This document shows, one piece after another, positions 6,024-26,588 of a stretch of DNA of 61,273 nt. The notes beneath the pieces were generated by a model. The model saw nothing but the letters and a program-made list of their open reading frames with translations. It was not told the DNA's origin and made no database searches. The first letter of the stretch is position 1, and every line of letters starts with the position of its first letter. The stretch is taken from IMG/VR virus record IMGVR_UViG_3300021400_000104; one strand, 5' to 3'. Source of the stretch: an uncultured virus (IMG/VR IMGVR_UViG_3300021400_000104) (taxonomy: Duplodnaviria > Heunggongvirae > Uroviricota > Caudoviricetes). A program made the translations under genes and the position numbers.

Positions 6024-7160
6024 TTAAATGCTTTCATCCTCTGGCAGAGTAATATGAAACAATGAAATATACTTAAGAGTAGTAATATTTTGAAGTAAAG
6101 TATCAAGTCTTCCATCATATTCTGCGAATAGTAATGGCGCGAAGTTCCCTTTTCCTACATACTGTGCAAAATACTTTCTCCGAGTGCGTTCGTCATCTGC
6201 AAATTGGTGTTCCATCTTCCATCTTTCTACTACGCTCTTGATTGCACTTACACGATAGTTTGCAGTAGTCATTTGTTCTTGAACGCTATCGAATATAGGT
6301 TTGTATTCTTGAAAATAACTAAGAAATTCATAGTGGTCATTTGCTCTGATTAAATCAACAATACGTTCTAAGGTGATTACTCCGTTATTCTTAGCCTTAT
6401 GCATCTGAAAATAGAGGAGAGTCTTAATCTTTACACGCTCATAGTTCTTATCACACACAACAATACCTTCATGACCTTCAGGCATTGAAGCTACAAGGTC
6501 ACGATACTCTTCTTCGTCTTCTAATACCCAGAGCTTAGGACGAGCTACATTAAGTTCCTTAGCAATGGTTTCTACCGCGGGAGTTTCATGCAGGTCTTCA
6601 GATAACATATTACGAGCAGAAAGTAAATATACCTTAGTCTCAGGATAGTCGATAACTACTTTATTATAAGGAGATACAAGTTCAAAAGTAAGGCAATAAG
6701 GCTCATAACGATTATTTACAAAGGTAGACAAAGGCAGCACAGACTCGAACAGTTCACCGAAAGTCTTGTAAGGACCTACACCGTTAAGCTCTGCCTTGAA
6801 TGCATCAATAGTAGCGTTTGTAGAAAGATGCCACTTGCCGCGTGCAAACCATACAGACATGATGGAGCCATCAATCTTCTCGGTTGCAATAGCAGTATCC
6901 CAGTCAAGGTGAGCAGCAAAGCCCTCGTCTACGTTGAAGAACTTCTTGAAAGCATAACGAACTACACGGAAGTTATCCTGAATATCAAGAATAAGACCAC
7001 GAGCCTCCTTACAGATTTCCTCATTAAAATCAGAAGCAATCTGGTTATACTTAAAGAGGACAAAACCATCATCTTCAGAAATCTTTAAGTTGTAAGGCGT
7101 ATCAGCTAAAAGCTCACGCCAGTTATCATGTGCAAAGATAAACTCCTGAATCTTTAACAT
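6024..7160 (-). CDS. T4 Rnl1-family RNA ligase
   Basis: KFFN, EKIDGS (motif I), FEL, EGIVV, RVKIK nucleotidyltransferase motifs. Confidence 0.85.
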   Translation of the reverse strand: MLKIQEFIFAHDNWRELLADTPYNLKISEDDGFVLFKYNQIASDFNEEICKEARGLILDIQDNFRVVRYAFKKFFNVDEGFAAHLDWDTAIATEKIDGSIMSVWFARGKWHLSTNATIDAFKAELNGVGPYKTFGELFESVLPLSTFVNNRYEPYCLTFELVSPYNKVVIDYPETKVYLLSARNMLSEDLHETPAVETIAKELNVARPKLWVLEDEEEYRDLVASMPEGHEGIVVCDKNYERVKIKTLLYFQMHKAKNNGVITLERIVDLIRANDHYEFLSYFQEYKPIFDSVQEQMTTANYRVSAIKSVVERWKMEHQFADDERTRRKYFAQYVGKGNFAPLLFAEYDGRLDTLLQNITTLKYISLFHITLPEDESI

Positions 7161-7161
7161 T

Positions 7162-10124
7162 TTAGCCCTCGCTTTCTTTATCCCAATAAATTTTCAAATC
7201 TACTTTGTCATGTACTCTCGCAGCGAAATAGTCATCTACATTTTTAAAATCTTCCTTTTTAGTAACCTTCTCTTCAAGAAGAACCCTGAATCCGAAGCTC
7301 TCAAATTCTGAAGCGATAGCTCTATAAATTTTTACAATATCTTTGCCAATATCACCCGAAAGAATATGGTCATAGAGGTATTCAAAATTTCTATAACTTA
7401 TTTTCCCGTCCATTGCGTTTTTTTTTACATTTTTCCAGAAATTTAACCTAGTCTTTTTGAAGGTATCATTATATTTACCTTCGACCATAGCTCTAGCATC
7501 TTCAACAGAAAAGGTGATGGTATTTATTTCTTTTTTCCCCTTTTTGAATAAGCTCATTTCAATCCCTCCTCTGAAGAGATAAATTCCCAATTAGCAATCA
7601 CTTTACCAATTCGGTATCCATCATCGTCAGAAACAATACGTATATAAGGAGTATGGTCTTGAAAATCTGGCATAAAAATAGGAATAGCAATAGAAATTGG
7701 AGATTTAAAACTAGTGCTCCAATAACCGCATTCAGAAGCAACACAAACTTCTCTATCTGCAAGTTCTGGATACTCTTTTAGAATTGCCGAGAGACCATCA
7801 ACTAATTCTTTAAGTGTTACCATTTAATCCTCCTTACTCAAGGTAATCATCATATATAATTATTGCTCTATAAAAAGAATTATCTCTCTTTATATCATTA
7901 CGAACAACTACTTCTCCTACCTCTTCTACAAAACCAATTAACTCTTCAAGAGAATTAAAAGTAATAACCCGCTCTCCAAACATACCATTCATTCTCTCCT
8001 CTTGAGTAAGTTCACGAGTTTGATAATGAGAAAGAAATTCTGAATAGTCATTTCCTGATGCTGAAAATTGATATACGAATTCCATTTAATCCTCCTCATC
8101 AATTGTATGCTCAGTAATATATAACTGACCACAAGCATAGTAAGAAGTTGATACTACCTGCTCTACGTTTTTAATCTTTTCTTCAACCACAGCGATATAG
8201 CCGCGGAGCTTCTCTGCATATTCATCATCGTCTTCGCATTCATCAAGCTCATCTCTATAAGACATGATTGATTCTTTTAATACGCTGATAAGTCCTTCCT
8301 TTGCTTTTTCAAAGGAGCTGTAAACTCCAATTACTCCATGGTCATAATCAGTGCGAAAATCCTCAAGCGTATAAACAGTAGTTTCCATTTTATCTTATCT
8401 CCTTATTCAGAATCGTCATCACAATCTTTCTCAAAGCAAGGAATATTACCACTCTGTGAACAACACCTACAATATTCATCATAAGGTTTCCATGCCTTGC
8501 ACTTATCTTTTACTTTTGGATTAGAGGGCTCCTTTATTAACCAATTATCTAGCTTATTTTTAACGTCCTCATATTTTTCATGAATATAAAAGGTTTTTTG
8601 AATACCAATACAATTAACACAAGTTACATTATCTAAATCTCGATCATCAGGAAAAATCATTGCAATTGAATTTACATTCAAAATAGTTTTCCCTTTCTCA
8701 AGGCAAATTAAATCCTTATTCATTTAAAGCTGCCTCTATCTTTAATTCCTCATAAGTCATTGCTTCTACCATCTTTCTACAATTCGGGCAATTCATATAA
8801 ACCATATAAGGTAAACAAGGAGGAGAAAATTTAACTTCTTTTCTCGCCGCCGTCCATCTACATCCACAATTGAAACAAGAAAATTGAAAATCATTTGCGT
8901 TCTTTTTTTGATCGCCACTATTTATAATAACCATTTTAGTCCTCCTCAGGCTTGCTCTCAGCAAAGGTATACTGTCCCTCCTGTGTCTGATATGTTACGC
9001 CATTCTTAAAGTGAATAGTGATTACATGCTTATCATGCATAATTACATCTGAAGTAATATAATCAATGTCCTCAGTCGCATAGTATTCACCGTCAACATA
9101 AATATACTTATGTGCATAAATATCGTTTTCAACTACAGAATTACTCCAACAGCTCTCGAAGCCAAGTAAAATAAAACATATTACAACGCATATGAAAATC
9201 ATATAAAAGTCTTTTTCATCATCGTACCTATACATTTTTATCTCCCGTTTCTTAACTTTCTATAATAATTATATCATAATTTCTTCAAATTATCAAATAA
9301 TTAATTAAAGAAAATAAAATTCTCTACATTATTTTATTACAAGTCTGCCGTATTTTGACCGTTTAATTTCAATATAAATAGGATAAGGCACATCCCCATT
9401 GTGGTATTCAATTTTCCACGTTCTATCAACATCCACTTCGATAACAGTCGCCGCACCAGCAAAACCAATTTTAAATAGACTCGATGGCGCACCTCGCATT
9501 GCATATTTTGCCTTATCCCATGCGTGCCAATTATTGTGATCTTTGACGTACTGAACAATACGAGGGTCAAAAGACATATCCTCATTTATCACAATATCAG
9601 AATCGCTATATCCTATTGACTCATAAAATTCCTTAAAATCTTTTGGAGGAATAAAAAAATGACCAAAAATTACGCACTCTTTAATATTCATTTTACCTCC
9701 CAAAAGAAGAATCTTTAAAAGCAATTCTTGTTACTTGAATCATATCAATCATTACTCCATACTTAATTGCAAATGCTCGCTTGGCATTATAAATATCCTC
9801 ATCTGAATTAGGATTTATTGCCACAATTTCCCTATATTTTGAAGCTCCTCCAATTCCCTGAGCTGTAACCGCACTAAATTCTACAAGAAGTTTCTGTTCC
9901 ATTATTCAACACTCCTTCTATTATTCTCCATGATAATCGTTGACTAAATAATTTATTGCTGCCATTTCAATAAACCAAAGGATACCATAACCTATAGCAC
10001 TAATAACATTTTTTGTTATTAAAGTCAAAAGGAATAAAGCAATTGTTCTAAGAATAATACACGTGCCGGCAGCTAAGCCGGCAATACCTATTAATACAAA
10101 CAAAATAACTCTAAATCTTTTCAT
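7162..10124 (-). other. array of about 10 small, tightly packed hypothetical ORFs
   Basis: 7162-7590, 7554-7823, 7834-8085, 8086-8388, 8403-8723, 8716-8964, 8936-9235, 9329-9724, 9693-9902, 9921-10124; mostly preceded by GGAG(G) RBSs with overlapping stop/start. Confidence 0.65.
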
Positions 10125-11062
10125 CGAGACTTAAGCATTTCCTTTACATATCCCATCGCAAGACTGGAGCAGGTCTTACCGAAAAGCTCACAAGCTGCTA
10201 CAATCTCCGGCTCCTCCTTTACGCAGTCTTCATAAGTTAGCTTACCAATGTTCTTGGCAATTACTCCCATGTTCTTCTCGTCCCAATCCTCCGGAATGAT
10301 ACCCTCGTCAATCATCTTCTCCATGATCTTCTGAACACGACGCTCGGTAACTACAGTTGCAACCATCTGGCGCTCTGCTTCACGAGCTGCAAGAACCGCA
10401 GGATCAATAGGCTTCTTAGGCTTAGAATCATGAACCTCAGAGAACTTCTCCGATACAATCTTGACATAAGTGGGTAGACGCCACTCTGGAATGTCAATAG
10501 TATTCTAGTTCTTGATTACAATTCCCTCACCGCAAGGCTCCGCATTAACATCGGTACGTCCAACCATCTGATAAAGGTGATCCCAAGAGATAAATGGACC
10601 GTCATAGAATACAGGAACGAAGTTAATAACCTCCTGTGTGAGCTGGGCTACACTTAAAAGCCCCGCGTGAATCGCACAAACATCGTCATAATGAAGCCAC
10701 TTCTCGTCCTGTGTATCCCATACATCGAACATCCAGAAATGATTGTACTCATGCTCAGGATAACGAACAGTATGCGGCACAAGCCACTCACCAAAAATTA
10801 CATAGCGACCGTTCTGAGTCATATGAGTAATACCCTTTTTATCAAGGCGCTAAGTCCAATCCCAAAAACCACGGAGATTATTTGCCTCATTTAATTCAGT
10901 CTTACGAGAGAAAGCCAGAACCTTATCCTGTGCGGAATTGTAGGTAAAAGATGCGTTAGCCCCGTCAATCTTCTCCTGTACCACAATTTCATCGCCAACA
11001 CGCATACACTCATCATACTTTACCTTAAAACGCTCTATGTCTATATAATGCTTTTGTACCAT
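10121..11062 (-). CDS. Rnl2-like RNA ligase (two in-frame TAG read as Gln)
   Basis: Three track ORFs join in one frame via TAG at 10850 and 10505: EKIDGANASF, FGEW, FDV, EGIVIKN(Q), YVKIVSEKF; ends TGA. Confidence 0.85.
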
Positions 11063-16045: not shown

Positions 16046-16064
16046 TACACATTTCTCCTTTTCA

Positions 16065-16097
16065 CAAGATAAAGTTTTTATTTTGATGTTTTATCTT
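16065..16097 (-). promoter_or_regulatory. minimal CAGCAA-like stem (CATCAA variant) in the 5' UTR of the Ro-like gene
   Basis: AAGATAAA-ACATCAA...TTTATCTT between the promoter at 16112-16140 and the RBS. Confidence 0.5.
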
Positions 16098-16152
16098 CTC
16101 ACTATAATAATATTATAGCATACTTTCTAAAAAAAGTCAAATAAATAATTGA

Positions 16153-16245
16153 CGCGGAGAGTGGGATTCGAACCCACGGGTCAGATACTAAGCTGACACA
16201 ATAGCTTTCAAGGCTATACGCTTATGACCACTTGCGCACCTCCGC
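16153..16245 (-). tRNA. tRNA-Ser(TGA)
   Basis: ATAGC-CT TGA AA-GCTAT, long variable arm, G73. Confidence 0.9.
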
Positions 16246-16248
16246 ATA

Positions 16249-16375
16249 TCAAGACGGGGAATACTTTTCAATGCTTCCGTTACACCACTAAGCCTTCCGA
16301 CTTAGAGAGGATTCGAACCTCTACCTTTTGTTAGACATACAAATATAAGTAAAAGTGTATTGCTGAACCGTCTTT
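16249..16375 (-). ncRNA. Y-RNA (YrlA)-like element with permuted tRNA-like domain
   Basis: AAGACGG-TTCAGCAA...T-arm AGAGG TTCGAAT CCTCT, closed acceptor hairpin CTAAGTC-GGAA-GGCTTAG, D-arm-like TGGTGTAACGGAAGCA...CCGTCTT. Confidence 0.75.
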
Positions 16376-16376
16376 A

Positions 16377-16448
16377 AACCGCAGAGCAGATTCGAACTGC
16401 CATATACTTCTTTAGGAGAGAAGTGCCTATCCTTTAGGCTACTGCGGC
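16377..16448 (-). tRNA. tRNA-Arg(CCT)
   Basis: CTTCT-CT CCT AA-AGAAG. Confidence 0.9.
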
Positions 16449-16568
16449 ATTTATAAAACCCTTACTTGTAAACAAAACAATCCTTTTATTATATCCACAT
16501 TCACATCGTGATTTATGCTCACACAAGAGAGACGCATGGAGAAGGGTACGCCGAAAGGGTACGGCGGC

Positions 16569-16642
16569 TGGAGCAGAATACGGGAATCGAACCCGCACCA
16601 AGTGCATGGGAAGCACCGATTCTACCATTAAACTAATTCTGC
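16569..16642 (-). tRNA. tRNA-Gly(CCC)
   Basis: GGTGC-TT CCC AT-GCACT, U73, encoded CCA. Confidence 0.9.
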
Positions 16643-16648
16643 ATTTAA

Positions 16649-16719
16649 AGGGTCTACCCCGAATCGAACGGGGATTTGATGTTTTGCAGACATCTGTCCT
16701 ACCTTTAAACGATAGACCC
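16649..16719 (-). tRNA. tRNA-Cys(GCA)
   Basis: GATGT-CT GCA AA-ACATC, U73. Confidence 0.9.
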
Positions 16720-16724
16720 AATAG

Positions 16725-16798
16725 TCGCCCATCCCAGATTCGAACTGGGACTAAATACTTTTTGAGAGTACCGCCTCTACCTGTTGGGCTAATGGGCG
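16725..16798 (-). tRNA. tRNA-Leu(CAA), short variable arm
   Basis: GTACT-CT CAA AA-AGTAT. Confidence 0.85.
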
Positions 16799-16985
16799 TT
16801 ATCTAAAGAGGAATATAAATATTCCTCTAAATTAGGTGATTACTCACCCTTAAGCCTGCGAAGTTGCCGCTTTAGCTTATTAATAATTCTAAAATTAATT
16901 CCCTCTCCACGCGAAGTTAGAAGTCTAATCCGATTTTCCATCATCTTAATTTGTAACTCTTTACTCATTTAATTTTCTCCTTCAC

Positions 16986-17225
16986 TTATTTCTTAATATA
17001 TTGTGCGGGATAGCAACGAAAAAAACCACCAAGATAAAAAGAATGATCTGTCTTAGTAGACATTATGCGAAAGATAATCTCTGCAGCATCTTCCGTTGAC
17101 ATCTCTGAGTCCCCATCTTTTAACCTATTACAAACTTTTTCTATCGCATAAAGAATAGCCTCATTAATAGTATCAAAAATATAGAAACCCTCATTACATA
17201 CCTCTAAAACAATAAACTGTTTCAT
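16986..17225 (-). CDS. hypothetical protein
   Basis: 79 aa ORF after promoter and RBS. Confidence 0.55.
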   Translation of the reverse strand: MKQFIVLEVCNEGFYIFDTINEAILYAIEKVCNRLKDGDSEMSTEDAAEIIFRIMSTKTDHSFYLGGFFRCYPAQYIKK

Positions 17226-17297
17226 ATTTTCCTCACTTTCTATTAATATTATACTATAATTTTCTTAAAAAGTAAAATCTTTTATTGCCAATTGAAG

Positions 17298-17370
17298 GGC
17301 GCAAGAAGAGAATTGAACTCTTAATTGCGGTGCCACAAACCGCCGTGATAACCATTTCACTACTCACACC
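17298..17370 (-). tRNA. tRNA-His(GTG)
   Basis: GCGGT-TT GTG GC-ACCGC; extra G-1. Confidence 0.88.
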
Positions 17371-17375
17371 ATAAT

Positions 17376-17490
17376 TCAAGACTCCTTTTTGTCCGGATAA
17401 TGGATTTGAACCATTGATTACGTTCATATTATGAGCGCGCCTTAACCCACTTGGCTAATCTGGAAGAAAAATAAATAGCTGAAGAGTCTT
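17376..17490 (-). ncRNA. CAGCAA-stem element enclosing an intact-order tRNA-like cloverleaf
   Basis: AAGACTC-TTCAGCTA...TCCAGAT TA GCCAAGTGGGTTAAGGC...ATGG TTCAAAT CCAT TATCCGGA...GAGTCTT. Confidence 0.7.
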
Positions 17491-17500
17491 AATTAAATTA

Positions 17501-17590
17501 TCAAGACAGCTCGTGCCATTTAGCAAGCGGCACTTTTGTTAAAATACATTTTATGTGTATGGAGCTATTTAAAATTTGCTGCGCTGTCTT
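17501..17590 (-). ncRNA. CAGCAA-stem RNA element
   Basis: AAGACAGC-GCAGCAA...GCTGTCTT. Confidence 0.7.
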
Positions 17591-17594
17591 TAAA

Positions 17595-17672
17595 TGGTGC
17601 CGCGGAAGGGATTCGAACCCATACTGTTTTGCTCCTAAGGCAAACGTCTCCTGCCAATTGGACTACCACGGC
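17595..17672 (-). tRNA. tRNA-Leu(TAG), short variable arm
   Basis: TTTGC-CT TAG GA-GCAAA, encoded CCA. Confidence 0.88.
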
Positions 17673-17691
17673 ATTCGAGGTGATTAACACC

Positions 17692-18210
17692 TCACTTAGA
17701 AATTTTATTTGCAATACCAGAAGCAGTATAACTATCTGGCTTAATTACACAATCATACCCAGATGCTTCAACCCATCCTGTAATTTCATTAATAAGCTCT
17801 TTTGTTTTTCCAGCATGACCAATATCACAATGAATTACAAAATGAATATTGAGTTTATCAATATCAATTCCGTCCTCAAGTAACTGAAGTTGAACTTCAT
17901 CAAGCAACCCTTCTGCATTAGAAAGACTACGAGATGTCTCTTCAACAATTTTAGTTTTTAGAGAACGAATTTTAGTTACATAATCAGTATGATAGAAAAA
18001 AATACCACCGCTACCAATTCTCGATAAAGCTATAACCTCAACCATCTTAGTGGTATCATGACTCTGGCTATCAGTTCCTACCGTGATTTCATATTTGCGT
18101 GTGGTATCTTCTTTAATATAATTTGCAATAATTCTTACCATTTCAGAGTAAGAAACTGATTGACCATTGCCACGGCGAAAAATTTTTTCGTGTGTACTAA
18201 TGGAATTCAT
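17692..18210 (-). CDS. RNase H-like YkuK (DUF458) family protein
   Basis: ITVGTDSQ, GSGGIFFY, IHCDIG..GKT, IKPDSY.AS.IANK motifs. Confidence 0.8.
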   Translation of the reverse strand: MNSISTHEKIFRRGNGQSVSYSEMVRIIANYIKEDTTRKYEITVGTDSQSHDTTKMVEVIALSRIGSGGIFFYHTDYVTKIRSLKTKIVEETSRSLSNAEGLLDEVQLQLLEDGIDIDKLNIHFVIHCDIGHAGKTKELINEITGWVEASGYDCVIKPDSYTASGIANKISK

Positions 18211-18298
18211 ATATATCTATCTCCTTTTATAAATTCCCGGTTGTGGTGTCGCATAACCGGAAACTGCGTAGGCTTTAGCCGGTAGCCTATAACCTTAA

Positions 18299-18372
18299 TA
18301 GGGAACAAGGGACTCGAACCCTCACTAATACGCACCTTAAACGTATGCCTCTGCCAATTGGGCTAATTCCCC
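18299..18372 (-). tRNA. tRNA-Leu(AAG), short variable arm
   Basis: TACGT-TT AAG GT-GCGTA. Confidence 0.8.
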
Positions 18373-18460
18373 ATTTGTGCCGCGCTCAGCAACACGGCAC
18401 TTTTCATAATAATTTTGGAGGTATCACTATGAAAAAATCAAAATTGCCCTTGCGGGCCAG

Positions 18461-18534
18461 TCGGGATGACAGGATTCGAACCTGCGGCATCTTGCACCCA
18501 AAGCAAGCGCTCTACCAAACTGAGCCACATCCCG
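18461..18534 (-). tRNA. tRNA-Pro(TGG)
   Basis: CTTGC-TT TGG GT-GCAAG, C1-G72. Confidence 0.92.
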
Positions 18535-18539
18535 ATATT

Positions 18540-18613
18540 TCAAGACGGATAATATAAATTAACAGCGTTACAAAATACACAGTTCTATTATATAAGAATT
18601 GCTGAACCGTCTT
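18540..18613 (-). ncRNA. CAGCAA-stem RNA element
   Basis: AAGACGG-TTCAGCAA...CCGTCTT. Confidence 0.7.
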
Positions 18614-18619
18614 ACTAAA

Positions 18620-19540
18620 TCAAGAATTTCTTTCCCAAAAAATTCCATTTTTATATCCCTAAATTGTTTTGTCTTCTTCTGCCATCTAAAGTCTTTGCTC
18701 TGCCCATAAAGCATATTGCGGCTCTGCTTCAATTCCTATATAATTACGTCCAAGTTTCTTTGCTGTTACACTTGTTGTACCTGAGCCAAGAAATGGATCT
18801 AAAATTATATCATTAGGATTTGAACTGGCAAGAATTAATTTCGCAACTAATTTTTCTGATTTCTATGTTGGATGAGCTGTATTTTCCTTCATAGACCAAA
18901 AAGGAATTGTAATATCACCCCAGAAATTTGATGGACAAGTATCTCGATAATTACCATCTTCTCCCTCAATCCAATCTTTAGGTTTACCATCTTGTCTATA
19001 AGTAGCAATTACTTCTTTTCTCATTTTTACAGCATCAAGATTAAAAGTATAATTGTTACTTTTTGTAGCAAACCATATATCTTCAAGCCCATTTTTCCAA
19101 TTAGATTTTGCTCCTCTACCTTTTTCTCTTTGCCAAGTAATTCGATTTCTAATTTTCAAATAATCTTGAAGAACACTACCAATAATAAGGCTACTTTCCC
19201 AATCGCAACAAACATACATAGTACCATTTTCTTTTAATAAAGGAGTAACAAGAGATAACCATTTTCTAGTATATTCCTCATACTCATTATTAGATTTTTT
19301 AGAAAACTTTGTACTGCTATATGTTTTTGTAAGATTATATGGTGGATCAACGATAATTAAATCAATACTTTCTTTTGGCAATAAAGGAAGAACATTAAAT
19401 GTATCTCCATTAATTGTCTTATTAAGAATAGTATCTAAGTTATCAACTTTTTCATTAAGTGAAATACACCTGGATAAATATTCCTATCCCTAAGAAATTG
19501 GAGTATCTATTGTTTTATTCCTTGGAGATTTCTAAGTCAT
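18620..19540 (-). CDS. beta-class N4C/N6A DNA methyltransferase (TAG-recoded)
   Basis: DPPY, HPT(TAG=Q)KS, DPFLGSGTT in one frame with six TAGs; ends TGA. Confidence 0.88.
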
Positions 19541-19617
19541 TATTCTTCCTCCTTCGCTTGGTTTCACATTGTGCCGCGACCATATAGGAATCGCCAAGCT
19601 ATATTACACAATGCAAA

Positions 19618-19694
19618 TGGTACCGGCGATGGGATTCGAACCCACAACGCATGGATTTTAAGTCCACTGTCTCTGCCAATTGGACTACGCCGGC
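19618..19694 (-). tRNA. tRNA-Leu(TAA), short variable arm
   Basis: GTGGA-CT TAA AA-TCCAT, encoded CCA. Confidence 0.88.
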
Positions 19695-19703
19695 ATTAAT
19701 AAA

Positions 19704-19830
19704 TCAAGATACGTTTTTAGTTTTTCTGCTCTACCAATTGAGCTACCCTCTCCAAAGATCGGGATTGGACTCGAACCAACAACACGAGAATTAAAAATTC
19801 TTAACTAAGTGTTTTGCTGTGCGTATCTTT
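19704..19830 (-). ncRNA. Y-RNA (YrlA)-like element with permuted tRNA-like domain
   Basis: AAGATACG-CACAGCAA...T-arm TTGG TTCGAGT CCAA, then closed acceptor-like hairpin, then D-arm TAGCTCAATTGGTAGAGC...CGTATCTT. Confidence 0.78.
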
Positions 19831-19833
19831 TAG

Positions 19834-19905
19834 TCACCCCAACGGGAGTCGAACCCGTGTCTCGAGGATGAAAACCTCGCGTCTTTGCCACTTGACTATA
19901 GGGCG
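19834..19905 (-). tRNA. tRNA-Glu(TTC)
   Basis: CGAGG-TT TTC AT-CCTCG. Confidence 0.88.
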
Positions 19906-19910
19906 ATTTA

Positions 19911-19981
19911 TTGCGGCCCTAGGACTCGAACCTAGATCTGCGGGTAATGAACCCACCGTGCTACCTTTACACCAAACCGCC
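19911..19981 (-). tRNA. tRNA-Met(CAT), initiator-like
   Basis: GTGGG-TT CAT TA-CCCGC with three G-C pairs; unpaired 1:72. Confidence 0.82.
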
Positions 19982-20049
19982 ATTTTTTTTCTTTTCTATA
20001 ATTATTATACTATAATTTTTAAGAAAAGTCAAATATTTAATTTTGTACA

Positions 20050-20496
20050 ATTAGTTGAAATCCAGCATCGCCAACGTGGAGGCTTGTACTTGATGCCATA
20101 GCTTCTGTACTACAGCTGCCAGCACATCTGGCAGAGAGGGAATCGCACCCTCTAAGCTAAAGAGTTTTATCCATCTACCCACTCTACGAAGGTACCACCT
20201 AGTCTCGCCGGTGGAATTGCGAGAATTTTCAAAGGATTTCTTACCTAACCGCTGCCACGGCACGCTCTCATATATGGCAGTATAAGGAACGATTCGGATT
20301 TAATACCACTTGTATCACACCCTGCTTGCTTTTACTTCGTCAGCTCCATCCTGAGTGTCTATGCGAAGGTTCTTGCTTGATTTAACTTAAGGGTAAGGCG
20401 CAAGCGAACGCCGACCAAAGAATCAAATAAAAGCGTTACATCTTTTCTTCGAAGAAGGAAACTTTGGGCAATTGAACCTACGGGTTTACCAACCCC
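20050..20496 (-). ncRNA. candidate large structured ncRNA (about 450 nt)
   Basis: GC-elevated, hairpin-dense, no convincing ORF, directly downstream of the tRNA-Gly CCA. Confidence 0.5.
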
Positions 20497-21024
20497 TGGA
20501 GCGGCTAACGGGACTCGAACCCGCCACGTCTGCTTACCCTCCAATGCTTTATACTCTTTTTAACACCTCACTTGCTTCATAATCTTCCATATAGCTCCAA
20601 TCCTTTCTCTTTTGAGAAGAATTGAAGTGGAGGCTCTTTTGAGTAGAACATTCAGAAATTGGTACGAGATAAGCTACACCATCCCAATAAGTAGCAAAAT
20701 AATCTACATCTTGTTCTGAGTATCTTCTCGATTTACAATTCCTTACATTGGTCGTTGTACTACGGCAATTAAATGTTATCGAATTCTCTGAGGCAATGCG
20801 TGATGTTTTAACTTGTAAACGCAAAAGTTTTCCATTTACATCTACAATTAAATCATACTTACTGTCTTGGCAGAGAGGTTGCGAAACATTATAGCCTAAT
20901 AAGAGAAGGTAAGTTGCGACCTACAACTCTGTTGCTATACCTTTGAATTGACTTGATAATTCCATTTTATTAAGATATAAAGTTCAGAGGGAAGGCAAAA
21001 ATGTTACCACTACACCATAGCCGC
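20497..21024 (-). tRNA. tRNA-Gly(TCC) interrupted by a 454-nt insertion (exons 21024-20990 and 20535-20497)
   Basis: GCGGCTATGGTGTAGTGGTAACATTTTTGCCTTCC | AAGCAGACGTGGCGGGTTCGAGTCCCGTTAGCCGCTCCA joins into a complete cloverleaf. Confidence 0.88.
20549..20965 (-). CDS. PD-(D/E)XK homing-type endonuclease (I-Ssp6803I-like) inside the tRNA insertion
   Basis: KGIATEL(Q)V...LGYNVSQP...YDLIVD...LRLQVKT...VDYFATY; one in-frame TAG. Confidence 0.82.
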
Positions 21025-21106
21025 ATTTTATAGTTTAAGGAGATTTCGCTCCGTACTCTTAAGTATATATTTATTATATCACACTCTAAGAAAAAAGTCA
21101 AATAAA

Positions 21107-21194
21107 CAAGACGGGAAATTTACGGATTTGAACCGTTTCAAAAAATTTTTGCAGAATTTTTCTTTGACCATTTTGTGTTTTGCTGGACCGTCTT
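21107..21194 (-). ncRNA. CAGCAA-stem RNA element with an isolated T-arm
   Basis: AAGACGG-TCCAGCAA...ACGG TTCAAAT CCGT...CCGTCTT. Confidence 0.7.
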
Positions 21195-21198
21195 ATAG

Positions 21199-21271
21199 TT
21201 ACTCCGCAAGGATTCGAACCTTGGGTGGCGGAGTTAGAGTCCGCTGCCTTAAGCCGCTTGGCGACGGAGTA
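21199..21271 (-). tRNA. amber suppressor tRNA (anticodon CTA), Gln-type body
   Basis: GCGGA-CT CTA AC-TCCGC; U1-A72; GCCAAGCGG D-arm typical of tRNA-Gln. Confidence 0.92.
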
Positions 21272-21346
21272 TGGTTTCGGTTGAGGGATTCGAACCCCCG
21301 AATGGCGGAGTTAGAGTCCGCGGCCTTACCGCTTGGCGAAACCGAA
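21272..21346 (-). tRNA. amber suppressor tRNA (anticodon CTA), Gln-type body, second copy
   Basis: Same anticodon arm, different acceptor and T stems, encoded CCA. Confidence 0.93.
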
Positions 21347-21353
21347 TTTTCAC

Positions 21354-21404
21354 CAAGACACTTATCGTTCTAAGGTTGGACGATATTTTCGCTGTTTGTG
21401 CCTT
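21354..21404 (-). ncRNA. minimal CAGCAA-stem RNA element
   Basis: AAGGCAC-AAACAGCGAA...GTGTCTT immediately after the promoter at 21415-21444. Confidence 0.6.
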
Positions 21405-21670
21405 TACTATAATAATTATATCACTTCTTTCTTAAAAAGTCAAATTATTAAGTTTTCTCATTCAACCAATAACAAACACACTCTTTACATCCTTCATAGT
21501 CAGAACATCTATCTGTGGCTGTTTTTCCAGTCAATGCCTAAATAGGACAAATACCAGTATTCATCATCATTGTAATAAGAATATCAGAGGGCGCTTTACT
21601 CATAAAATATTTCCAACAATTGGAATCTTTCAAGCCCAATGGTCTCACCTCTTTCTTAACAATTTGAAAG

Positions 21671-21759
21671 CGTCGAGAGAGGGATTCGAACCCTCGAACC
21701 CCTTTGTGGGGTTAACGCCTTAGCAGGGCGCCGCAATCGACCAACTCTGCCATCTCGAC
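21671..21759 (-). tRNA. tRNA-Ser(GCT)
   Basis: GCGCC-CT GCT AA-GGCGT, long variable arm. Confidence 0.92.
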
Positions 21760-21766
21760 ATAATAC

Positions 21767-21843
21767 ACGACAAACTATTAAAGATAGTGTACGACTCTAT
21801 CTCCCCTATTGACCGAAGAAGTAGTGTTTTGCTGATTTGCCGT
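21767..21843 (-). ncRNA. CAGCAA-stem RNA element
   Basis: ACGGCAAA-TCAGCAA...TTTGTCGT. Confidence 0.65.
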
Positions 21844-21850
21844 AACGTAC

Positions 21851-21926
21851 TGGTGCGCCCAGCGGGACTTGAACCCACGACCCCTCGCTTAAAAGGCGAG
21901 TGCTCTACCAACTAAGCTATGAGCGC
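21851..21926 (-). tRNA. tRNA-Lys(TTT)
   Basis: CTCGC-CT TTT AA-GCGAG, encoded CCA. Confidence 0.93.
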
Positions 21927-21930
21927 ATAA

Positions 21931-22290
21931 ATGTAGCCAGTTTTATCTCACCCTTAACGACTCTACACGCGCCGGCTACCATACTCGTAGCTTTACTGCT
22001 TCTAATCTCCCTCACTTATGAGCAGCGATAAGTGTCATATACTAATATAAGTGTGTTTTCCCTGCCACCTTTAACACACAAATCTTGGCAAGTCGTGAGT
22101 TTCCGCGCAACCCGATTTTCGTCTCAAACGCACATAAAGAATACAACTTTTTTTACTTCTCGTAGTTAGGAGTGCGAAGTCTTCATGCTGATTCATCTCT
22201 CCTGTACGCCGCTGTTTCTCTATAACAGCAATAAACGCTACTTTTTAACTTATACAAGTAGGAAACGCAGACCATTATAAGGCGGTCAAA
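21931..22290 (-). ncRNA. candidate structured ncRNA (about 360 nt) with possible pseudoknots
   Basis: No ORF; several hairpins lying between tRNA-Thr and tRNA-Lys. Confidence 0.45.
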
Positions 22291-22295
22291 CCTAA

Positions 22296-22368
<73 letters not shown>

Positions 22369-22376
22369 ATCATTAA

Positions 22377-22485
22377 TGGAGAAATTAGGATTTGAACCTA
22401 AATCCTCGCTGAAGGTTTGCTTGATTATACCTAACTTCAGTATCTTCCAGATATGCTGGCCGCTTTACCGTTAAGCTATCTCCCC
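22377..22485 (-). ncRNA. tRNA-like RNA with Ala acceptor identity and a non-canonical anticodon/variable region
   Basis: GGGGAGA/TTTCTCC-A with G3:U70, normal D and T arms, middle replaced by two irregular hairpins. Confidence 0.7.
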
Positions 22486-22525
22486 ATCTGACGCCGCTTT
22501 TGAATGGAGTGACGCCGAACCATAC

Positions 22526-22585
22526 TAGACAGTGTAATATAAACTCTATAAAATATATCTTAAATAAAGTTTGCTGTACTGTCTA
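22526..22585 (-). ncRNA. CAGCAA-stem RNA element at a transcript 5' end
   Basis: TAGACAGT-ACAGCAA...ACTGTCTA starting about 5 nt below the -10 box of the promoter at 22591-22619. Confidence 0.7.
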
Positions 22586-22981
22586 TAATAATTATATCAC
22601 TTTTTTCTTAGAAAGTCAAATAATTAATTATCTTATTGGATATTAAATCTCTTGATTCTCTGAATAAACCCAATAAAGATAGTTATAATCATCTGAAATT
22701 AGATTAGCATGAAAGATAAAATCTTCATTTGACTCATTTTCTGAAAGTGAAACGTTCGTCTGTTGTCTGTTTAAGTCCTACTACGTCATTCTTTTTATCC
22801 TCCTTCTTCTTATATTTTGCATTAATGAAAGTCTTTGCTATATCTGCAAAATATTTCATCGCGAAAACAAGAACTGTCATTTTTACAAGGAAATAAAAGA
22901 AGTTCATTACTACATCCATCTCTTTCTCCGTTTCTCTATTAATAGTATATCATATTTCCTCATAAAAGTCAAATAATTTGT

Positions 22982-23063
22982 TGGTACCCGCCGGGGGATT
23001 CGAACCCAAAACCAATCTCTCGCTTATAAGGCGAGTGCTTGTAACCACTTAAGCTCTGCGGGC
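22982..23063 (-). tRNA. tRNA-Ile(TAT)
   Basis: CTCGC-CT TAT AA-GCGAG, encoded CCA. Confidence 0.82.
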
Positions 23064-23069
23064 ATATAA

Positions 23070-23142
23070 TTGGGGCAGAGGGATTCGAACCCACAATAAA
23101 CGGTACCAAAAGCCGTTGCCTTAACCTTTTGGCGATGCCCCA
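23070..23142 (-). tRNA. tRNA-Gln(TTG)
   Basis: ACGGC-TT TTG GT-ACCGT, U1-A72. Confidence 0.88.
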
Positions 23143-23357
23143 GTCTTGTGAGGGATTTCTCCCTCACTTTCTATAATTATTATATCATAATTTTCTTAAA
23201 AAGTCAATTAATCTGCTGCTCCTTCGCCCTCATTATCACCGATAAGCTGCTCCCAGCACTCAGGACAAAGAGTTGCCTCCTCATCATCTGACTCAAAAGG
23301 CTTACTACAATTATCACAGATACACTCAAATTCCTTCTCGTCCATTATTATTCCTCC

Positions 23358-24639
23358 TTAACATTGAGTAGTATTTTTATAAATAGAGAAAGTATCTACA
23401 CTAAAAGAAACTCTATAGATGAGAATATTATCGCACTTTTTCTCATCTTCAATGTCACAAACAAATTCATCATAACTACGACCGTCATCACGAATAAAGT
23501 CAAGAACTTCCTCTTTTTCATTTTCTGGGGCTTTAATATAATCTCGCATCATATCGAGATAAATTTCTCCAATAAGACGTTTTACTTCTCGCTCTGCCGC
23601 AGCCTTAGAAGGAAAAGTTTTAATTTCTGGCATATCAAATTCATTTTCATAGAGAATATTATATACTGTCATTTTAGTCCTCCTTTAAAATATAGGTATA
23701 TGCCTGTTTACCATCTGCCCGAATATAGATAACATTAATCTAAAAATTCTCCGGCGCGGCGGGGACTATCTCAGTCTTATGATTAATACCTTCAGCTCTA
23801 TCAAAATAAAGAGACTCCTCAAAATCTCTAGCTCTCATTTTAACCCATTTAGAATCTCTTACTTTTAAGTTCTCGTTTCCATTTTCATCTCTAACTTTTT
23901 CAAGCTAAGTAATCTTCATAAGAAAATTACTCTTCAAAATTCTCTTTTCTCCCATTATATGCCTCCTTTAATCCCAAAGATTTTCAAAATATCTACATAG
24001 CCAGCACTTAGCCCGAAACCAATTTTTCTTATCCTCGTCTGACCAATTCATGGGATCTTTAGTTATATAAATATAAAATCCATAAATCATTTCATTTAAG
24101 ATTTTTTCCCATTTTTCCATTCCATCTGCTTCACCAGCAAATTCACTTGGATACCCATGGGTAGTATCTCTTAAATGAACAAGCCGCGGCAAGATAAAAA
24201 GTGCGATAGAAGTCTCCAAATTCCAACAGTCCTCATAACGAAAACCATGTTTTTCCTCAAACTTATCTGCCTTTTCCTGATCTTTTTTTGAATAGAATTT
24301 ACTCTTTTTAATACGAAAACTATATTTTTTAACTGCTTTTTCTGCCTGTTTAAGAGTAATTACTGGTACATCCATGTCTTACCTCCTATTACACGTTCCA
24401 ATTACTTCAGCATAGTCATCAATTTCATAAACGCCATTCCATAAAATTGCTTCTTCGCCAAAAATTTCTTGAACGTAGAAAAATTTTATGGGAGTATGCG
24501 GCTCTATATTCTCATAATATAAATAATCAGAACATAATCGTTCAAAGTCTTTCTCACTTTCAACAAAAATCACATCACTATCTGCTCTAAAATAATGATT
24601 TAAATTAATTTCTCTCATTTCTATCTCACTTCTTTTCAA
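23358..24639 (-). other. small hypothetical ORFs (23358-23672, 23968-24375, 24379-24639)
   Basis: ORF track plus RBS motifs. Confidence 0.6.
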
Positions 24640-24706
24640 TTTCTATAAATATTATAGCATGAAATAAGAAAAAAGTCAAAGCATTAACTGCTTTGACTTT
24701 AATCTA

Positions 24707-25267
24707 TTAATCACCTGCTTTTGGCACTCCAGTTGAATCCTCTACTTCATCATCAAGCTAGTCAGAAAGTTCCTTAATCTTTGCCATAATTGCTGCACGC
24801 TCAAACTTAAGCATCTAAAGAACTGTATCTGCATACGAAGAGTCTTCTCCTGTTCCAGTCCATCCCTCTGGTTCATAATCAACATTGTTAAAGTTATAAC
24901 TTAAACCACCTGCTTTAACAATTACATCCTTCTTCTTTGTCTCAATAGCTTCAATCATCTTGTTGATAACATTAGCCTTCTTAGAGAGCTTACAAATTTG
25001 TCCTTCGGTAGAAGTCTTTTTAGGCTCTGGAATTGGGTCAGGACAAGGGCAAGGTGGAAATGGTGGGAATGGATGTGGTGGTGGGTATGGTGGTACAGGC
25101 GGATATGGAGGCGGGAAATCAGGTGGAGGTGGTGGTGGCATCCAATAGACGCCATTCTGACATCCACAACCAGGTTTCTACCCAGCATCAGGCACTGGAG
25201 AACTTGATGCGCCGCAACATCCACAAGAGGCAAGATCTGCATTATAAATAAGATCAGCGTTTGGCAT
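24707..25267 (-). CDS. Cys/Pro-rich protein (TAG-recoded)
   Basis: ATG at 25267 with GGAGG RBS, three TAGs, TAA at 24707; SCGCCG...PPPPPPDFPPPYPP...CPCP. Confidence 0.75.
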
Positions 25268-25582: not shown

Positions 25583-26482
25583 TTAATGCGCATTTACATC
25601 CCCGTCATGCAATACATCCAAATCTCTCATAAAATATTCCCCAAAACGATCCGAAATCTTCTGGAGATACTTCTCGCCCTTAAAATAGTCCATATGATGC
25701 TGGATAAGATTTGCGATATAAACTGCTTTAGGTGCGGACTTGTCCGAATGAGAAATATAGAAATATGCGCCCACATTCTCATGATTGTAATAATGAGCAA
25801 CATCAGACTCTTCGCCACGTGCGTTTTTGAAAACCTTGCAAAAAGGCTTGCCACAATCATGGAAAAGTGCGGCCTCAATTACTCTATTATCTGCATAAGA
25901 ATTATCAACCACATATTTTTGTGCTAAAAGCATATGGTCACCAACACTTGCAGAATGATGGGGGTTATCATGAGAGAGTTCCTTAGCATTTAAAACAATA
26001 TCATTAAGAGCATTCATATCCATATCGTTCCCGTAAAGGAGAATTCTATCCCACCCCTCAGATTCATGCGGGACCTCAAAACGCTTCAGCATCGAATTAA
26101 TTACCTCTTCGGGCACAACTCGATCTCTACCAGCATTACGATCCTTTACAATCTCAAACGGAGGAACATTCAATACACACACCTTAATAAGTCCCTTAAT
26201 ATGCTCAATGTTCTTCAAGAAACCAATGCGACGCTTTGCCGAGAGATTCGTAGCATCATAATACACAGAAAACCCAGCAAGCAAAGCATCAATCGTGCGG
26301 CGCTTCATAATCTCAAATACTTCCATATTATGAGACTGGTCATTTACATCGCCAAAGATCTCCTCACGGATAGCGTCAGAAGAGACATGAACGCAATTAG
26401 GCTCAATCTTCTTAATTTCAGATTCATAAAGATAAGACTTTCCAGAGCCAGCAAGGCCAACTGCCATAAAGAAAAACGGCAT
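25583..26482 (-). CDS. P-loop polynucleotide-kinase-like domain fused to an HD phosphohydrolase
   Basis: GLAGSGKS, SSDAIREE, DATN, RxR; HH...H...HDCGK...HENVGA...HHM...D. Confidence 0.82.
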   Translation of the reverse strand: MPFFFMAVGLAGSGKSYLYESEIKKIEPNCVHVSSDAIREEIFGDVNDQSHNMEVFEIMKRRTIDALLAGFSVYYDATNLSAKRRIGFLKNIEHIKGLIKVCVLNVPPFEIVKDRNAGRDRVVPEEVINSMLKRFEVPHESEGWDRILLYGNDMDMNALNDIVLNAKELSHDNPHHSASVGDHMLLAQKYVVDNSYADNRVIEAALFHDCGKPFCKVFKNARGEESDVAHYYNHENVGAYFYISHSDKSAPKAVYIANLIQHHMDYFKGEKYLQKISDRFGEYFMRDLDVLHDGDVNAH

Positions 26483-26588
26483 TTCTTTTTCCTCCTATTT
26501 CTTAATTACTATAATAATTATAGCATAAATTTTAAGAAAAGTCAAATAGAGTATTATTAATATAGATTTTTCCGCCACAAAAATCTAC

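Follow-up and report, generated by a model that had tools for sequence, protein, structure and literature searches.

How could a tRNA gene be expressed when its anticodon loop is interrupted by an insert that consists almost entirely of a homing-endonuclease gene? This question was raised by a locus in a 61,273-nucleotide stretch of an uncultured Caudoviricetes virus (IMG/VR record IMGVR_UViG_3300021400_000104), the whole of which is called the window here. On the minus strand, positions 21024-20990 and 20535-20497 joined to form a clean tRNA-Gly(UCC), which ARAGORN called as such with a score of 117.45. The 5' exon (20990..21024, minus strand) covers tRNA positions 1-36 and carries the anticodon U34 C35 C36 at its very end (20992-20990), and the 3' exon (20497..20535, minus strand), placed from the sequence and from ARAGORN on the joined exons, runs from A37 to the encoded CCA. 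The unjoined split gene was missed by both ARAGORN and Rfam. Between C36 and A37 lies an ORF-only, intron-like insert of 454 nt (20536..20989, minus strand), whose boundaries were matched by the uninterrupted alleles of relatives. Its non-coding flanks comprise 24 nt (20989-20966) and 13 nt (20548-20536), about 37 nt in all. The insert coordinates, the flank lengths and the 417-nt ORF reported in the earlier note held at all positions. Its description of both exons as intact was confirmed by the score of the joined halves and by the high joined-exon scores found across the family. A megablast search of positions 19000-24000 against GenBank phages returned no match.

By sequence alone, the junctions could also be placed at 34/35 or 33/34, in which case the anticodon would be that of a Thr tRNA, the last base of the 5' exon would be U, and that of the intron would be G. 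Both placements were rejected and the 36/37 junction was preferred, because the uninterrupted alleles in relatives read CTTCC/AAGCAGA and because the tRNA body carries G1-C72, C2-G71, G3-C70, and U73, which we take to be the bacterial Gly identity set. With this junction, the last base of the 5' exon is C36 and the last base of the insert is U, in agreement with the earlier claim that the junctions lack the 5'-exon U and the terminal G.

The ORF inside the insert (20549..20965, minus strand; 417 nt including the stop) encodes a 138-aa homing endonuclease of the PD-(D/E)XK type. The protein matched PF11645 (PDDEXK_5) with an E value of 1.3e-23 and 84 bits, against a cut-off of 26.1, and matched PDB 2OST (I-Ssp6803I) with an E value of 2.9e-9, with the YDL..D and LQVK segments aligned, thereby upholding its assignment to the I-Ssp6803I family. 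We found 251 homologues at E ≤ 1e-3, and residues E13, D38, D42, Q51, and K53 were invariant across 34 homologues. The ORF stays open only when codon 15, a TAG (20923-20921), is decoded as an amino acid. When TAG was treated as sense, the minus-strand ORFs of at least 100 aa grew in summed length from 11269 to 17281 aa, with the longest one going from 505 to 1021 aa. In addition, two tandem CTA (amber-reading) tRNA genes, which are needed for the TAG inside the endonuclease ORF, are located 170 nt upstream (21198..21346, minus strand). The gain in ORF length and the two CTA tRNAs justify reading this TAG as sense, and the phage recodes TAG.

Next, we examined how the ends of the insert fold. 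The ends pair as had been claimed, with CCCTCTGA/TTGGAGGG forming 8 bp, two of which are G-U. A 3x3 internal loop (C32 U33 U34 / U A37 A38) lies between this end pairing and the anticodon stem, so that the pairing is not a direct extension of that stem, as had been proposed. The 5' strand of this closing helix, H1 (20984..20992, minus strand), consists of the anticodon bases U34, C35, and C36, the first of them unpaired here, followed by the first six bases of the intron (CUCUGA), and it pairs with 20544-20536. The 3' strand of H1, UUGGAGGGU (20536..20544, minus strand), was placed from the sequence and the family alignment, and its last three bases lie opposite the anticodon. H1 is followed by a 1x2 internal loop, with a bulged A (20983, minus strand) on the 5' side and CA (20545..20546, minus strand) on the 3' side, the latter within a conserved GCAUUG motif (20547-20542); among 71 unique loci, the 5' side is A in 69 and the 3' side is CA in 61. 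Past the internal loop, positions 20982-20975 pair with 20554-20547 in a second helix, H2, which had been overlooked in the earlier note. Its 5' strand is CUUUAUAU (20975..20982, minus strand), and its 3' strand, GUAUAAAG (20547..20554, minus strand), which was placed in the same way as that of H1, includes the TAA stop of the ORF (20551-20549). Taken together with the anticodon stem, H1 and H2 amount to an irregular 22-25 bp duplex that closes a long loop.

The same organization was found in a large family. Among the 114 loci examined, 87 resolved as a cloverleaf tRNA with an ORF-only insert at 36/37, and the split tRNAs were those for Gly (UCC and GCC), Thr (UGU), Ser (GCU), and Asn (GUU). 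The ORF made up 90-97% of the insert in 71/71 unique loci, and all 71 ORFs were intact. The RNA design was also common to the family: the anticodon is paired by the last three intron bases, H1 has 9-10 bp, and the A/CA loop is followed by a covarying H2 that closes the ORF. The last three intron bases were complementary to the anticodon in every class (TCC/GGN, TGT/AYA, GCT/AGC, GCC/GGC, GTT/AGC, and AGT/ATT). In the 71 unique loci, the paired fractions were 0.93 for the anticodon, 0.92 for H1 (inflated, as H1 pairing served as a criterion in choosing the junctions), and 0.95 for H2, compared with 0.63-0.67 in 500 shuffles (0.65 for H2; maximum, 0.73) and 0.28-0.48 when the partner strand was slid. 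Several pair types occurred at each helix position across the family. These results show a conserved RNA fold that varies in step with the anticodon of the tRNA in which the element sits. The exons were likewise well preserved: the median ARAGORN score of the joined exons was 119.7 (n = 70) versus 117.1 for 183 uninterrupted neighbour tRNAs, and no decayed pair was found among the 70 scored. An intact second copy of the split isoacceptor was missing from three records, of which two are complete and one is 83% complete.

Comparison of relatives revealed precise presence and absence alleles. Loci L123 and L124 carry an identical, uninterrupted tRNA-Gly of which L122 is the split counterpart, and the insert occupies different members of a set of three tRNAs in genomes G004 and G002. 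A related insert was found in the tRNA-Asn of the cultured Enterococcus phage EFP01, and in 29 Enterococcus phages the match to EFP01 begins only at the first base of the 3' exon. These alleles indicate that the element is mobile, and in relatives it inserts precisely at position 36/37 of the anticodon loop in DNA. The insertion-free alleles that the earlier note had proposed to look for were thus present in relatives (L123 and L124), whereas for the window's own gene exact-match exon scans of viral contigs gave 0 matches. A joint from 20523 to 21001 in DNA run X1, with 23 other letters in between, belonged to a tRNA-Gly(GCC) of another genome and was rejected as an uninterrupted allele. A scan for Gly-type inserts without an ORF, with up to about 61 inner bases, gave 0.

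To judge from its sequence, the element has no ribozyme. In Rfam searches, neither 10 kb of sequence screened at E ≤ 1 nor 1 kb screened at E ≤ 10 matched a family of introns or self-cleaving RNAs; in particular, the searches gave no group I core, for which the earlier note had argued that the insert is too small. The P3-P8 core of a group I intron takes roughly 200 nt, and the insert offers 37 non-coding nt. The identical-codon fraction along the ORF was 0.48-0.71 in every inner interval, and this flat synonymous-site variation argues that no RNA core is buried in the ORF. The 5'-exon U and intron-terminal G of group I introns are also absent, and the identity of the last intron base depends on the anticodon throughout the family. 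It is hardly credible, then, that a cryptic self-splicing or self-cleaving RNA overlaps the ORF or is made of the short flanks plus the tRNA body. Such an RNA could draw on the conserved unpaired A/CA and the motif in the flanks, and Rfam is limited to described families, but it would have to work with only about 37 non-coding nt, to have escaped both the Rfam search and the comparison of synonymous sites, and to dispense with a U-G pair and a terminal G, given a 5' exon with C or U at its end and a last intron base that varies with the anticodon. A strongly covered RNA at 20150-20488 was considered as a trans-acting ribozyme and was rejected, because it had no Rfam match and a fold z-score of 0.23 and was not conserved beside other split tRNAs.

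The geometry of the junctions was then compared with that of known protein-cleaved substrates. The two junction sites are 3 nt apart across H1 and are constant relative to the tRNA body, whereas the spacing between them and the A/CA loop differs by 1 bp from class to class. No bulge-helix-bulge (3-nt bulges 4 bp apart) is formed, because the 5' site lies within a helix, between H1 base pairs 3 and 4, and the 3' site lies at the base of H1. An alternative register, in our reading, comes nearer to a relaxed bulge-helix-bulge in the Gly and some Thr introns and is not general. EndA-family genes (PF01974) were detected in 0/5 related phage records, two of them complete, in a search whose control matched 4 archaeal genomes. 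The term archaeal-like, which had been applied to the insert, therefore fails in its strict sense, as there is no bulge-helix-bulge, the junction is at 36/37, not 37/38, and EndA was detected in none of the five related records. The PF04308 RNase H-like gene in the window's tRNA array was considered as a shared nuclease and was rejected, having been found in 0/5 related records. We know of no bacterial or phage enzyme that cuts such a substrate. RNase III leaves a 2-nt stagger, which here would leave an 8-nt anticodon loop, and its geometry was rejected on that ground. The same geometry bears on the idea that the insert is cut out and the ends are left unjoined, as happens with intervening sequences in bacterial 23S rRNA, with a double-strand RNase cutting the stem and freeing the endonuclease mRNA, and the tRNA halves staying as a nicked, probably inactive tRNA or being degraded. 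The irregular 22-25 bp duplex closing a long loop resembles RNase III processing stalks, in which an irregular duplex likewise closes a long loop; however, the boundaries that restore the tRNA are 3 nt apart, not 2, and constant relative to the tRNA body, and a nick at 36/37 would be expected to inactivate the tRNA, so that we consider this outcome highly improbable.

Enzymes that could seal a cut anticodon loop are encoded in the window. An Rnl1-type RNA ligase (6024..7160, minus strand; PF09511, E value of 1.6e-15) and an Rnl2-type RNA ligase (10121..11062, minus strand; PF09414, E value of 3.5e-26) are candidate sealing enzymes, and they bear out the earlier mention of phage RNA ligases. 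They are joined by a P-loop kinase (AAA_33; 25583..26578, minus strand; PF13671, E value of 3.6e-17) that could heal RNA ends; its C-terminal half is His/Asp-rich and may be a phosphoesterase. Matches to PF09414 at E ≤ 0.01 occurred in 5/5 related phage records, with two exceeding the family cut-off. Phage EFP01 encodes RtcB (198 bits), which was found in 0/5 IMG/VR records. The PF09511 (Rnl1) search matched 0/5 records and 0/1, and as its control also matched nothing, these counts are uninformative. The ligase family thus varies among the phages (Rnl1/Rnl2, PHA02142-type, or RtcB). RNA ligases are common tRNA-repair genes of large phages (PMC7824862), and their presence is therefore not specific to the element.

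Altogether, we favor the reading that the insert is a protein-spliced mobile intron, with a probability of about 45%. The I-Ssp6803I-family gene, framed by 24 and 13 nt that fold with the anticodon into the closing stem H1, the A/CA loop, and H2, would be transcribed as part of the tRNA array. The stem would present both junctions as sites staggered by 3 nt, measured from the tRNA body, and a protein nuclease, either the PD-(D/E)XK protein encoded in the intron or an RNase of the host or phage, would cut them. An RNA ligase (Rnl1 or Rnl2 here, with the kinase-type healing enzyme) would then reseal the anticodon loop to yield tRNA-Gly(UCC). The endonuclease itself would be translated only after the phage CTA tRNAs read the in-frame TAG. 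Intact ORFs (71/71) are expected if the protein is needed; intact exons and ORFs are also expected from recent homing into live genes. A more specific version, in which the intron's protein does both jobs, cutting the uninterrupted DNA target for homing and the pre-tRNA junctions for splicing before a ligase seals, is unlikely. The 3-nt stagger of the anticodon-intron helix would in that case mimic the DNA site of the endonuclease, and sealing would be done by Rnl1/Rnl2 here and by RtcB in EFP01.

Protein splicing is closely followed by a serious contender, namely, that the insert is an unspliced selfish element and the tRNA is dead. The element would home into dispensable tRNA genes, and the cloverleaf and the helices would serve the endonuclease mRNA: the tRNA scaffold, which RNase P and RNase Z would release from the transcript of the array, would stably hold both ends of the mRNA. 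Engineered tRNA scaffolds with inserts in the anticodon loop are indeed stable in bacteria. The element is clearly a mobile homing-endonuclease gene, and 71/71 intact ORFs with no ORF-less remnant in the scan are the pattern of active turnover. Phages with and without each insert coexist, so that each split tRNA seems dispensable, and a splicing nuclease was not found (EndA and PF04308, 0/5 related records each). The RNA libraries can be read in the same direction, as the contigs covering the ORF extend 8 bases into the 3' exon, which indicates that some RNA or DNA in these libraries is uncut at the 3' junction; this overlap is too short to count as bridging the junction, and RNA libraries may include DNA. 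The contigs from two studies (X3 and X6) both end at 20528, without a loose end there, and this shared end is a weak hint of either an RNA end or falling cover near the 3' end of the tRNA, from which we make no conclusion. No exon-joining contig was found among the assembled contigs of the RNA libraries, where mature tRNAs are not expected, and RNA cover of 20935-21326 is absent from X3, X18, and X6, which is a gap in the data. Several features of the family weigh against this reading. A simple clamp needs neither a strict A/CA loop and GCAUUG motif across endonucleases that are about 40% identical nor intron bases that track the anticodon in six classes, and 0/70 scored exon pairs had decayed. 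In the established view of homing, endonuclease genes in functionally critical sites do not usually destroy their target, and a large, successful family that does so each time would be unusual among them.

To our knowledge, tRNA introns of bacteria and bacterial viruses are held to be self-splicing group I introns, and protein splicing is held to be an archaeal and eukaryal hallmark. If the inserts are spliced, the group-I-only rule for bacterial tRNA introns no longer holds, and phage RNA ligases do more than repair. A two-job endonuclease, if true, would mean that tRNA splicing by proteins alone had been found for the first time in the bacterial world, with a bacterial virus supplying the equivalent of archaeal EndA. 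If splicing does not occur, the family represents a tRNA scaffold of natural origin exploited by a selfish gene, and the tRNA counts of many gut phages are wrong both ways, with split genes missed by finders and yet perhaps dead. The cultured phage EFP01 and its 29 sister phages without the insert make the splicing question answerable by ordinary RNA work. No published description of ORF-only, ribozyme-less phage tRNA inserts was found in the literature, as far as its texts were available; new here are the family size, the occurrence of a cultured example and of uninterrupted alleles, and the covariation of conserved helices with the anticodon.

Known systems resemble the element in part. Mobile archaeal introns carry a homing-endonuclease ORF between short flanks that form the splice-site structure, which EndA cuts and RtcB seals. 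The phage element is like them in that the ORF nearly fills the intron, the short flanks pair, the anticodon pairs with the intron, and the element moves by homing. In contrast, it resides in a bacterial virus, has no bulge-helix-bulge, interrupts 36/37 instead of 37/38, and encodes a PD-(D/E)XK instead of a LAGLIDADG protein; the archaeal introns also use EndA, a family detected in 0/5 related phage records. General background is given in PMC4090602, and EndA itself is classed in the PD-(D/E)XK superfamily in PMC3424549. The group I intron in the tRNA-fMet gene of Synechocystis PCC 6803, the source of I-Ssp6803I (2OST), shares its endonuclease family with the phage element. Its target, according to Bonocora and Shub (2001), is likewise of the kind seen for the phage element, the anticodon loop of a tRNA gene. 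The I-Ssp6803I ORF lies within a self-splicing ribozyme, whereas the phage element lacks a ribozyme, the 5'-exon U, and the intron-terminal G. I-Ssp6803I is described as a tetramer reading a pseudo-palindromic 23-bp site in PMC3384342.

Among phages, the Lak megaphages, which are gut phages, resemble the window's phage in recoding TAG and in having an intron in tRNA-Gly(TCC). The available portion of their description (bioRxiv 10.1101/356790) reports 'enigmatic' introns in tRNA-Gly(TCC) and tRNA-Thr(TGT), which vary in presence between genomes and fall into no Rfam class; that portion mentions no endonuclease ORF, whereas the phage element has one. In a tblastn search of the endonuclease against GenBank phages, identities did not exceed 37%, and the best 40 of 54 matches included no Lak record. 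The free-standing homing endonuclease SegB of the T4 tRNA cluster is also similar, being, according to PMC8421152, a selfish endonuclease gene that is tied to a phage tRNA array and cuts tRNA genes. SegB lies between genes, whereas the phage element has precise boundaries within the anticodon loop itself, and its RNA fold is conserved. Most members of the family are inside the anticodon loop, and a minority (L024, L067, and L069) seem to be located between tRNA genes.

On re-reading the sequence, all coordinates of the split tRNA-Gly(UCC) and of its insert were borne out. The 454-nt insert (20989-20536, minus strand) lies between C36 and A37 and consists of 24 nt, a 417-nt ORF (20965-20549) with a single in-frame TAG at codon 15, and 13 nt. 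The exons (21024-20990 and 20535-20497), which the earlier note had called intact, joined into a cloverleaf tRNA-Gly(UCC) with encoded CCA (ARAGORN score, 117.45). The ORF proved to belong to the PD-(D/E)XK family, as had been proposed (PDDEXK_5, 84 bits, E 1.3e-23); it matched phrog_5018, and its closest solved structure was I-Ssp6803I (2OST, E 2.9e-9). The insert ends do pair, forming 8 bp that include two G-U pairs, but rather than extending the anticodon stem directly, this helix (H1) is parted from it by a 3x3 internal loop. A second helix (H2), missed previously, comprises 8 bp (20982-20975 with 20554-20547) distal to a 1x2 internal loop (A versus CA), and it closes the ORF and includes its stop codon.

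Endonuclease homologues numbered 251 at E<=1e-3 among 265 candidates. All were metagenomic, many shared 60-99% identity, and the top match among GenBank phages was 37% identical. We collected 114 loci: 28 on viral contigs, 80 on metagenome contigs (the best 80 of 117), 5 on genome contigs, and the window. A locus passed the script if it had an anticodon stem of 5 bp, U33, a purine at residue 37, and 7 or more of the 9 H1 pairs. ARAGORN named a tRNA from the joined exons in 87 of the 114 loci, and the 74 unique loci carried the anticodons TGT (38), TCC (24), GCT (5), GCC (4), and GTT, AGT, and AAA (1 each), where Asp(GTC) calls had been moved by one base to the probable Thr(UGU) by homology to C32 loci. 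After removal of L091 (AAA, doubtful) and of L065 and L068 (Gly GCC, poor fit to the helix register), 71 loci remained for the codon, pairing, ORF-intactness, and exon-score counts. Inserts were 439 to 492 nt long across the family, and all 71 ORFs were intact (134 to 156 aa, 90-97% of the insert), 16 with an in-frame TAG. In 21 unresolved or unnamed loci, ARAGORN intron mode found a split tRNA around the ORF in 12, including Arg(TCT), Cys(GCA), and one tandem pair, and none in the other 9, where either the contig is cut or the ORF appears to sit between two tRNA genes. Two such split tRNA genes can occur on one phage contig, in tandem at L063:290-1472 and at 116946-117326 and 142125-142535 of the related phage record G002. 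In two further loci (L025 and L027, about 920-1650), the insert is longer (~657 nt) in a Thr-like tRNA, the endonuclease frame runs on into extra sequence, and the 5' flank is unlike that of the main family. Two related phage contigs (L008:657-805 and L082:658-806) carry, in a tRNA anticodon loop, a 72-nt insert with paired ends and no ORF, below group I intron size; their anticodons differ, one being UUU and one UCU.

A relative also occurs in a cultured phage, Enterococcus phage EFP01 (KY549443), whose tRNA-Asn(GUU) is split at 36/37 by a 463-nt insert. The last three bases of this insert, AGC, lie opposite GUU, and its ORF, annotated as hypothetical, is 37% identical to the window endonuclease. 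The joined exons scored 115.2. EFP01 DNA starting 13 bases upstream of the 3' exon matched 31 Enterococcus phage records, EFP01's two entries counted; among the matches listed, all 10 non-EFP01 records aligned only from base 1 of the 3' exon, and 8 of these had an annotated tRNA-Asn there. In addition, two viral contigs (L123 and L124) carry an uninterrupted tRNA-Gly(UCC) that reads CTTCC|AAGCAGA. In its exons and flanks it is identical to the split L122 and L004 gene, which places the element exactly at 36/37 without duplication. We scanned the whole records of three related phages (G002, G004, and G005), the latter two rated complete by the collection. In G004, Ser(GCT) and Gly(TCC) are intact and Thr(TGT) is split; in the syntenic G002, Ser(GCT) and Gly(TCC) are split and Thr(TGT) is intact. 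None of the three records held a second intact copy of the split isoacceptor. The median ARAGORN score was 119.7 for joined exons (n=70) versus 117.1 for uninterrupted neighbours (n=183). At the DNA level, there is good support for a homing endonuclease gene that specialises in anticodon loops.

The RNA fold is conserved across the family. In every class, the final three intron bases are complementary to the anticodon (TCC/GGN, TGT/AYA, GCT/AGC, GCC/GGC, GTT/AGC, and AGT/ATT), and H1 gains 6 to 7 further pairs from the two ends of the intron. A bulged A (69/71 loci) opposite CA (61/71) follows, and then H2, with at least 5 unbroken pairs in 65 of 71 loci (range, 3 to 8). The paired fractions were 0.93 for the anticodon with the intron 3' end, 0.92 for distal H1, and 0.95 for H2, against means of 0.63, 0.67, and 0.65 over 500 partner shuffles, where anticodon-stem pairing is 1.0 by construction, junction choice used H1 pairing, and H1 length was set to maximise pairing. 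No shuffle exceeded 0.73, and sliding the 3' strand by 1 to 3 bases gave 0.28 to 0.48. Most helix positions showed at least three pair types, such as T-A (44 loci), C-G (23), and A-T (4) at H2 position 3. The uninterrupted alleles give independent support, as do 21 loci in which only the ARAGORN score was used to set the junctions. The 5' junction follows base pair 3 of H1 and the 3' junction lies at its base, a 3-nt stagger with 3' overhangs whose place on the tRNA body is fixed; between classes, the spacing to the A/CA loop varies by one pair (H1 of 9 in Gly and Ser loci and 10 in most Thr loci).

Protein-dependent splicing of the insert is our leading reading, at a probability of about 0.45. 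It is favoured because the fold with the exon's anticodon is kept and is retuned at each move to a new tRNA, and because the loop and motif are conserved across proteins only ~40% identical, features that a mere insertion has no evident reason to keep. Mobile archaeal introns have the same architecture. On the other side, the junction sites do not match a bulge-helix-bulge motif or the cut expected of RNase III, and we know of no enzyme that suits this substrate. EndA (PF01974), RtcB (PF01139), and the RNase H-like family (PF04308) were each found in none of the five related phage records searched. EFP01 encodes RtcB (198 bits). The RNA ligase PF09414 was present in 5/5 at E<=0.01, 2/5 above the cut-off; three such proteins that were scanned were 396 to 458 aa long, two of them also matching the PHA02142 OB-fold domain. 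This leaves the intron's own protein as the one constant component. An RNA ligase of one family or another was present in all seven phages examined, but such ligases are described in one source (PMC7824862) as common repair genes of large phages. A selfish insertion that is never spliced is a serious competitor, itself short of even odds, since a scaffold model of this kind accounts for intact exons and closing helices alike; its difficulty is the anticodon-tuned fold with its conserved loop and motif. Excision without ligation appears improbable.

A cryptic ribozyme is very unlikely. No intron or self-cleaving family matched in Rfam at E<=1 within 15000-25000 or at E<=10 within 20050-21060. 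The earlier note had named a group I core overlapping the ORF as a refuting result, and we tested for one with a codon alignment of the 71 unique ORFs. Same-residue pairs used the identical codon in 0.60 overall and in 0.48 to 0.71 across all inner 8-codon windows, and the fraction rose solely at both ORF ends, where H2 overlaps. A buried core of ~200 nt would be expected to suppress synonymous change, and no such damping was seen among the 71 ORFs. The claim that the insert leaves no room for a group I ribozyme stood.

RNA evidence consisted of assembled contigs of RNA libraries from two studies. Contigs covered 20528-20934 in X3, 20528-20753 in X6, and 20633-20934 in X18. They take in the ORF and the intron 3' end and reach 8 bases into the 3' exon, not enough to bridge the junction; no assembled contig contained the exon-exon join, which bears on splicing neither way. 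Directly downstream of the split tRNA, an unannotated non-coding stretch (20150-20488, minus strand) was covered by contigs of three runs from the two studies (X3 depth, 21). It matched no Rfam family, had unremarkable fold energy, and was not kept beside other split tRNAs. A hairpin resembling a T arm lies at 20114-20187.

We found no published description of this endonuclease-only tRNA insert family. A preprint on Lak megaphages (bioRxiv 10.1101/356790) reports tRNA introns of no known class in TAG-recoding phages, where the interrupted genes are Gly(TCC) and Thr(TGT).

Almost every gene of the window, a stretch of phage-like DNA, lies on the minus strand, and no close DNA relative was found among GenBank phages. 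With TAG read as a residue, minus-strand ORFs of at least 100 aa sum to 17281 aa instead of 11269, and the longest reaches 1021 aa instead of 505; the structural genes (37.4-61 kb) have a high density of in-frame TAGs. ARAGORN found 19 genes in the tRNA array (16151-23142), two with a CTA anticodon, and Rfam added two tRNA-like matches. In one (22377-22485, minus strand; 43.6 bits), the acceptor, D, and T arms are normal, but 54 nt that fold into two hairpins replace the anticodon arm; the other (22985-23063, minus strand; 36.5 bits) has the loop CTTATAA, the Ile-like anticodon TAT, and an extended variable region. Within the array region, a gene at 17692-18210 encodes an RNase H-like protein (PF04308), and near the array are an Rnl1-type ligase (6024-7160), an Rnl2-type ligase (10121-11062), a kinase-type protein (25583-26578), and a DUF2828/DUF7788 protein (14573-16045). 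Inside the array, a weak match to the Y RNA-like YrlA (19700-19805; 43 bits against a cut-off of 69) lies close to the last of these, and together with the two ligases and the kinase-type protein they look like an RNA repair or quality-control set. Finally, a BrxL-like Lon-type ATPase is encoded on this phage DNA at 1991-3409 (PF13337, E 4e-88), a family that otherwise takes its name from the bacterial BREX defence system.
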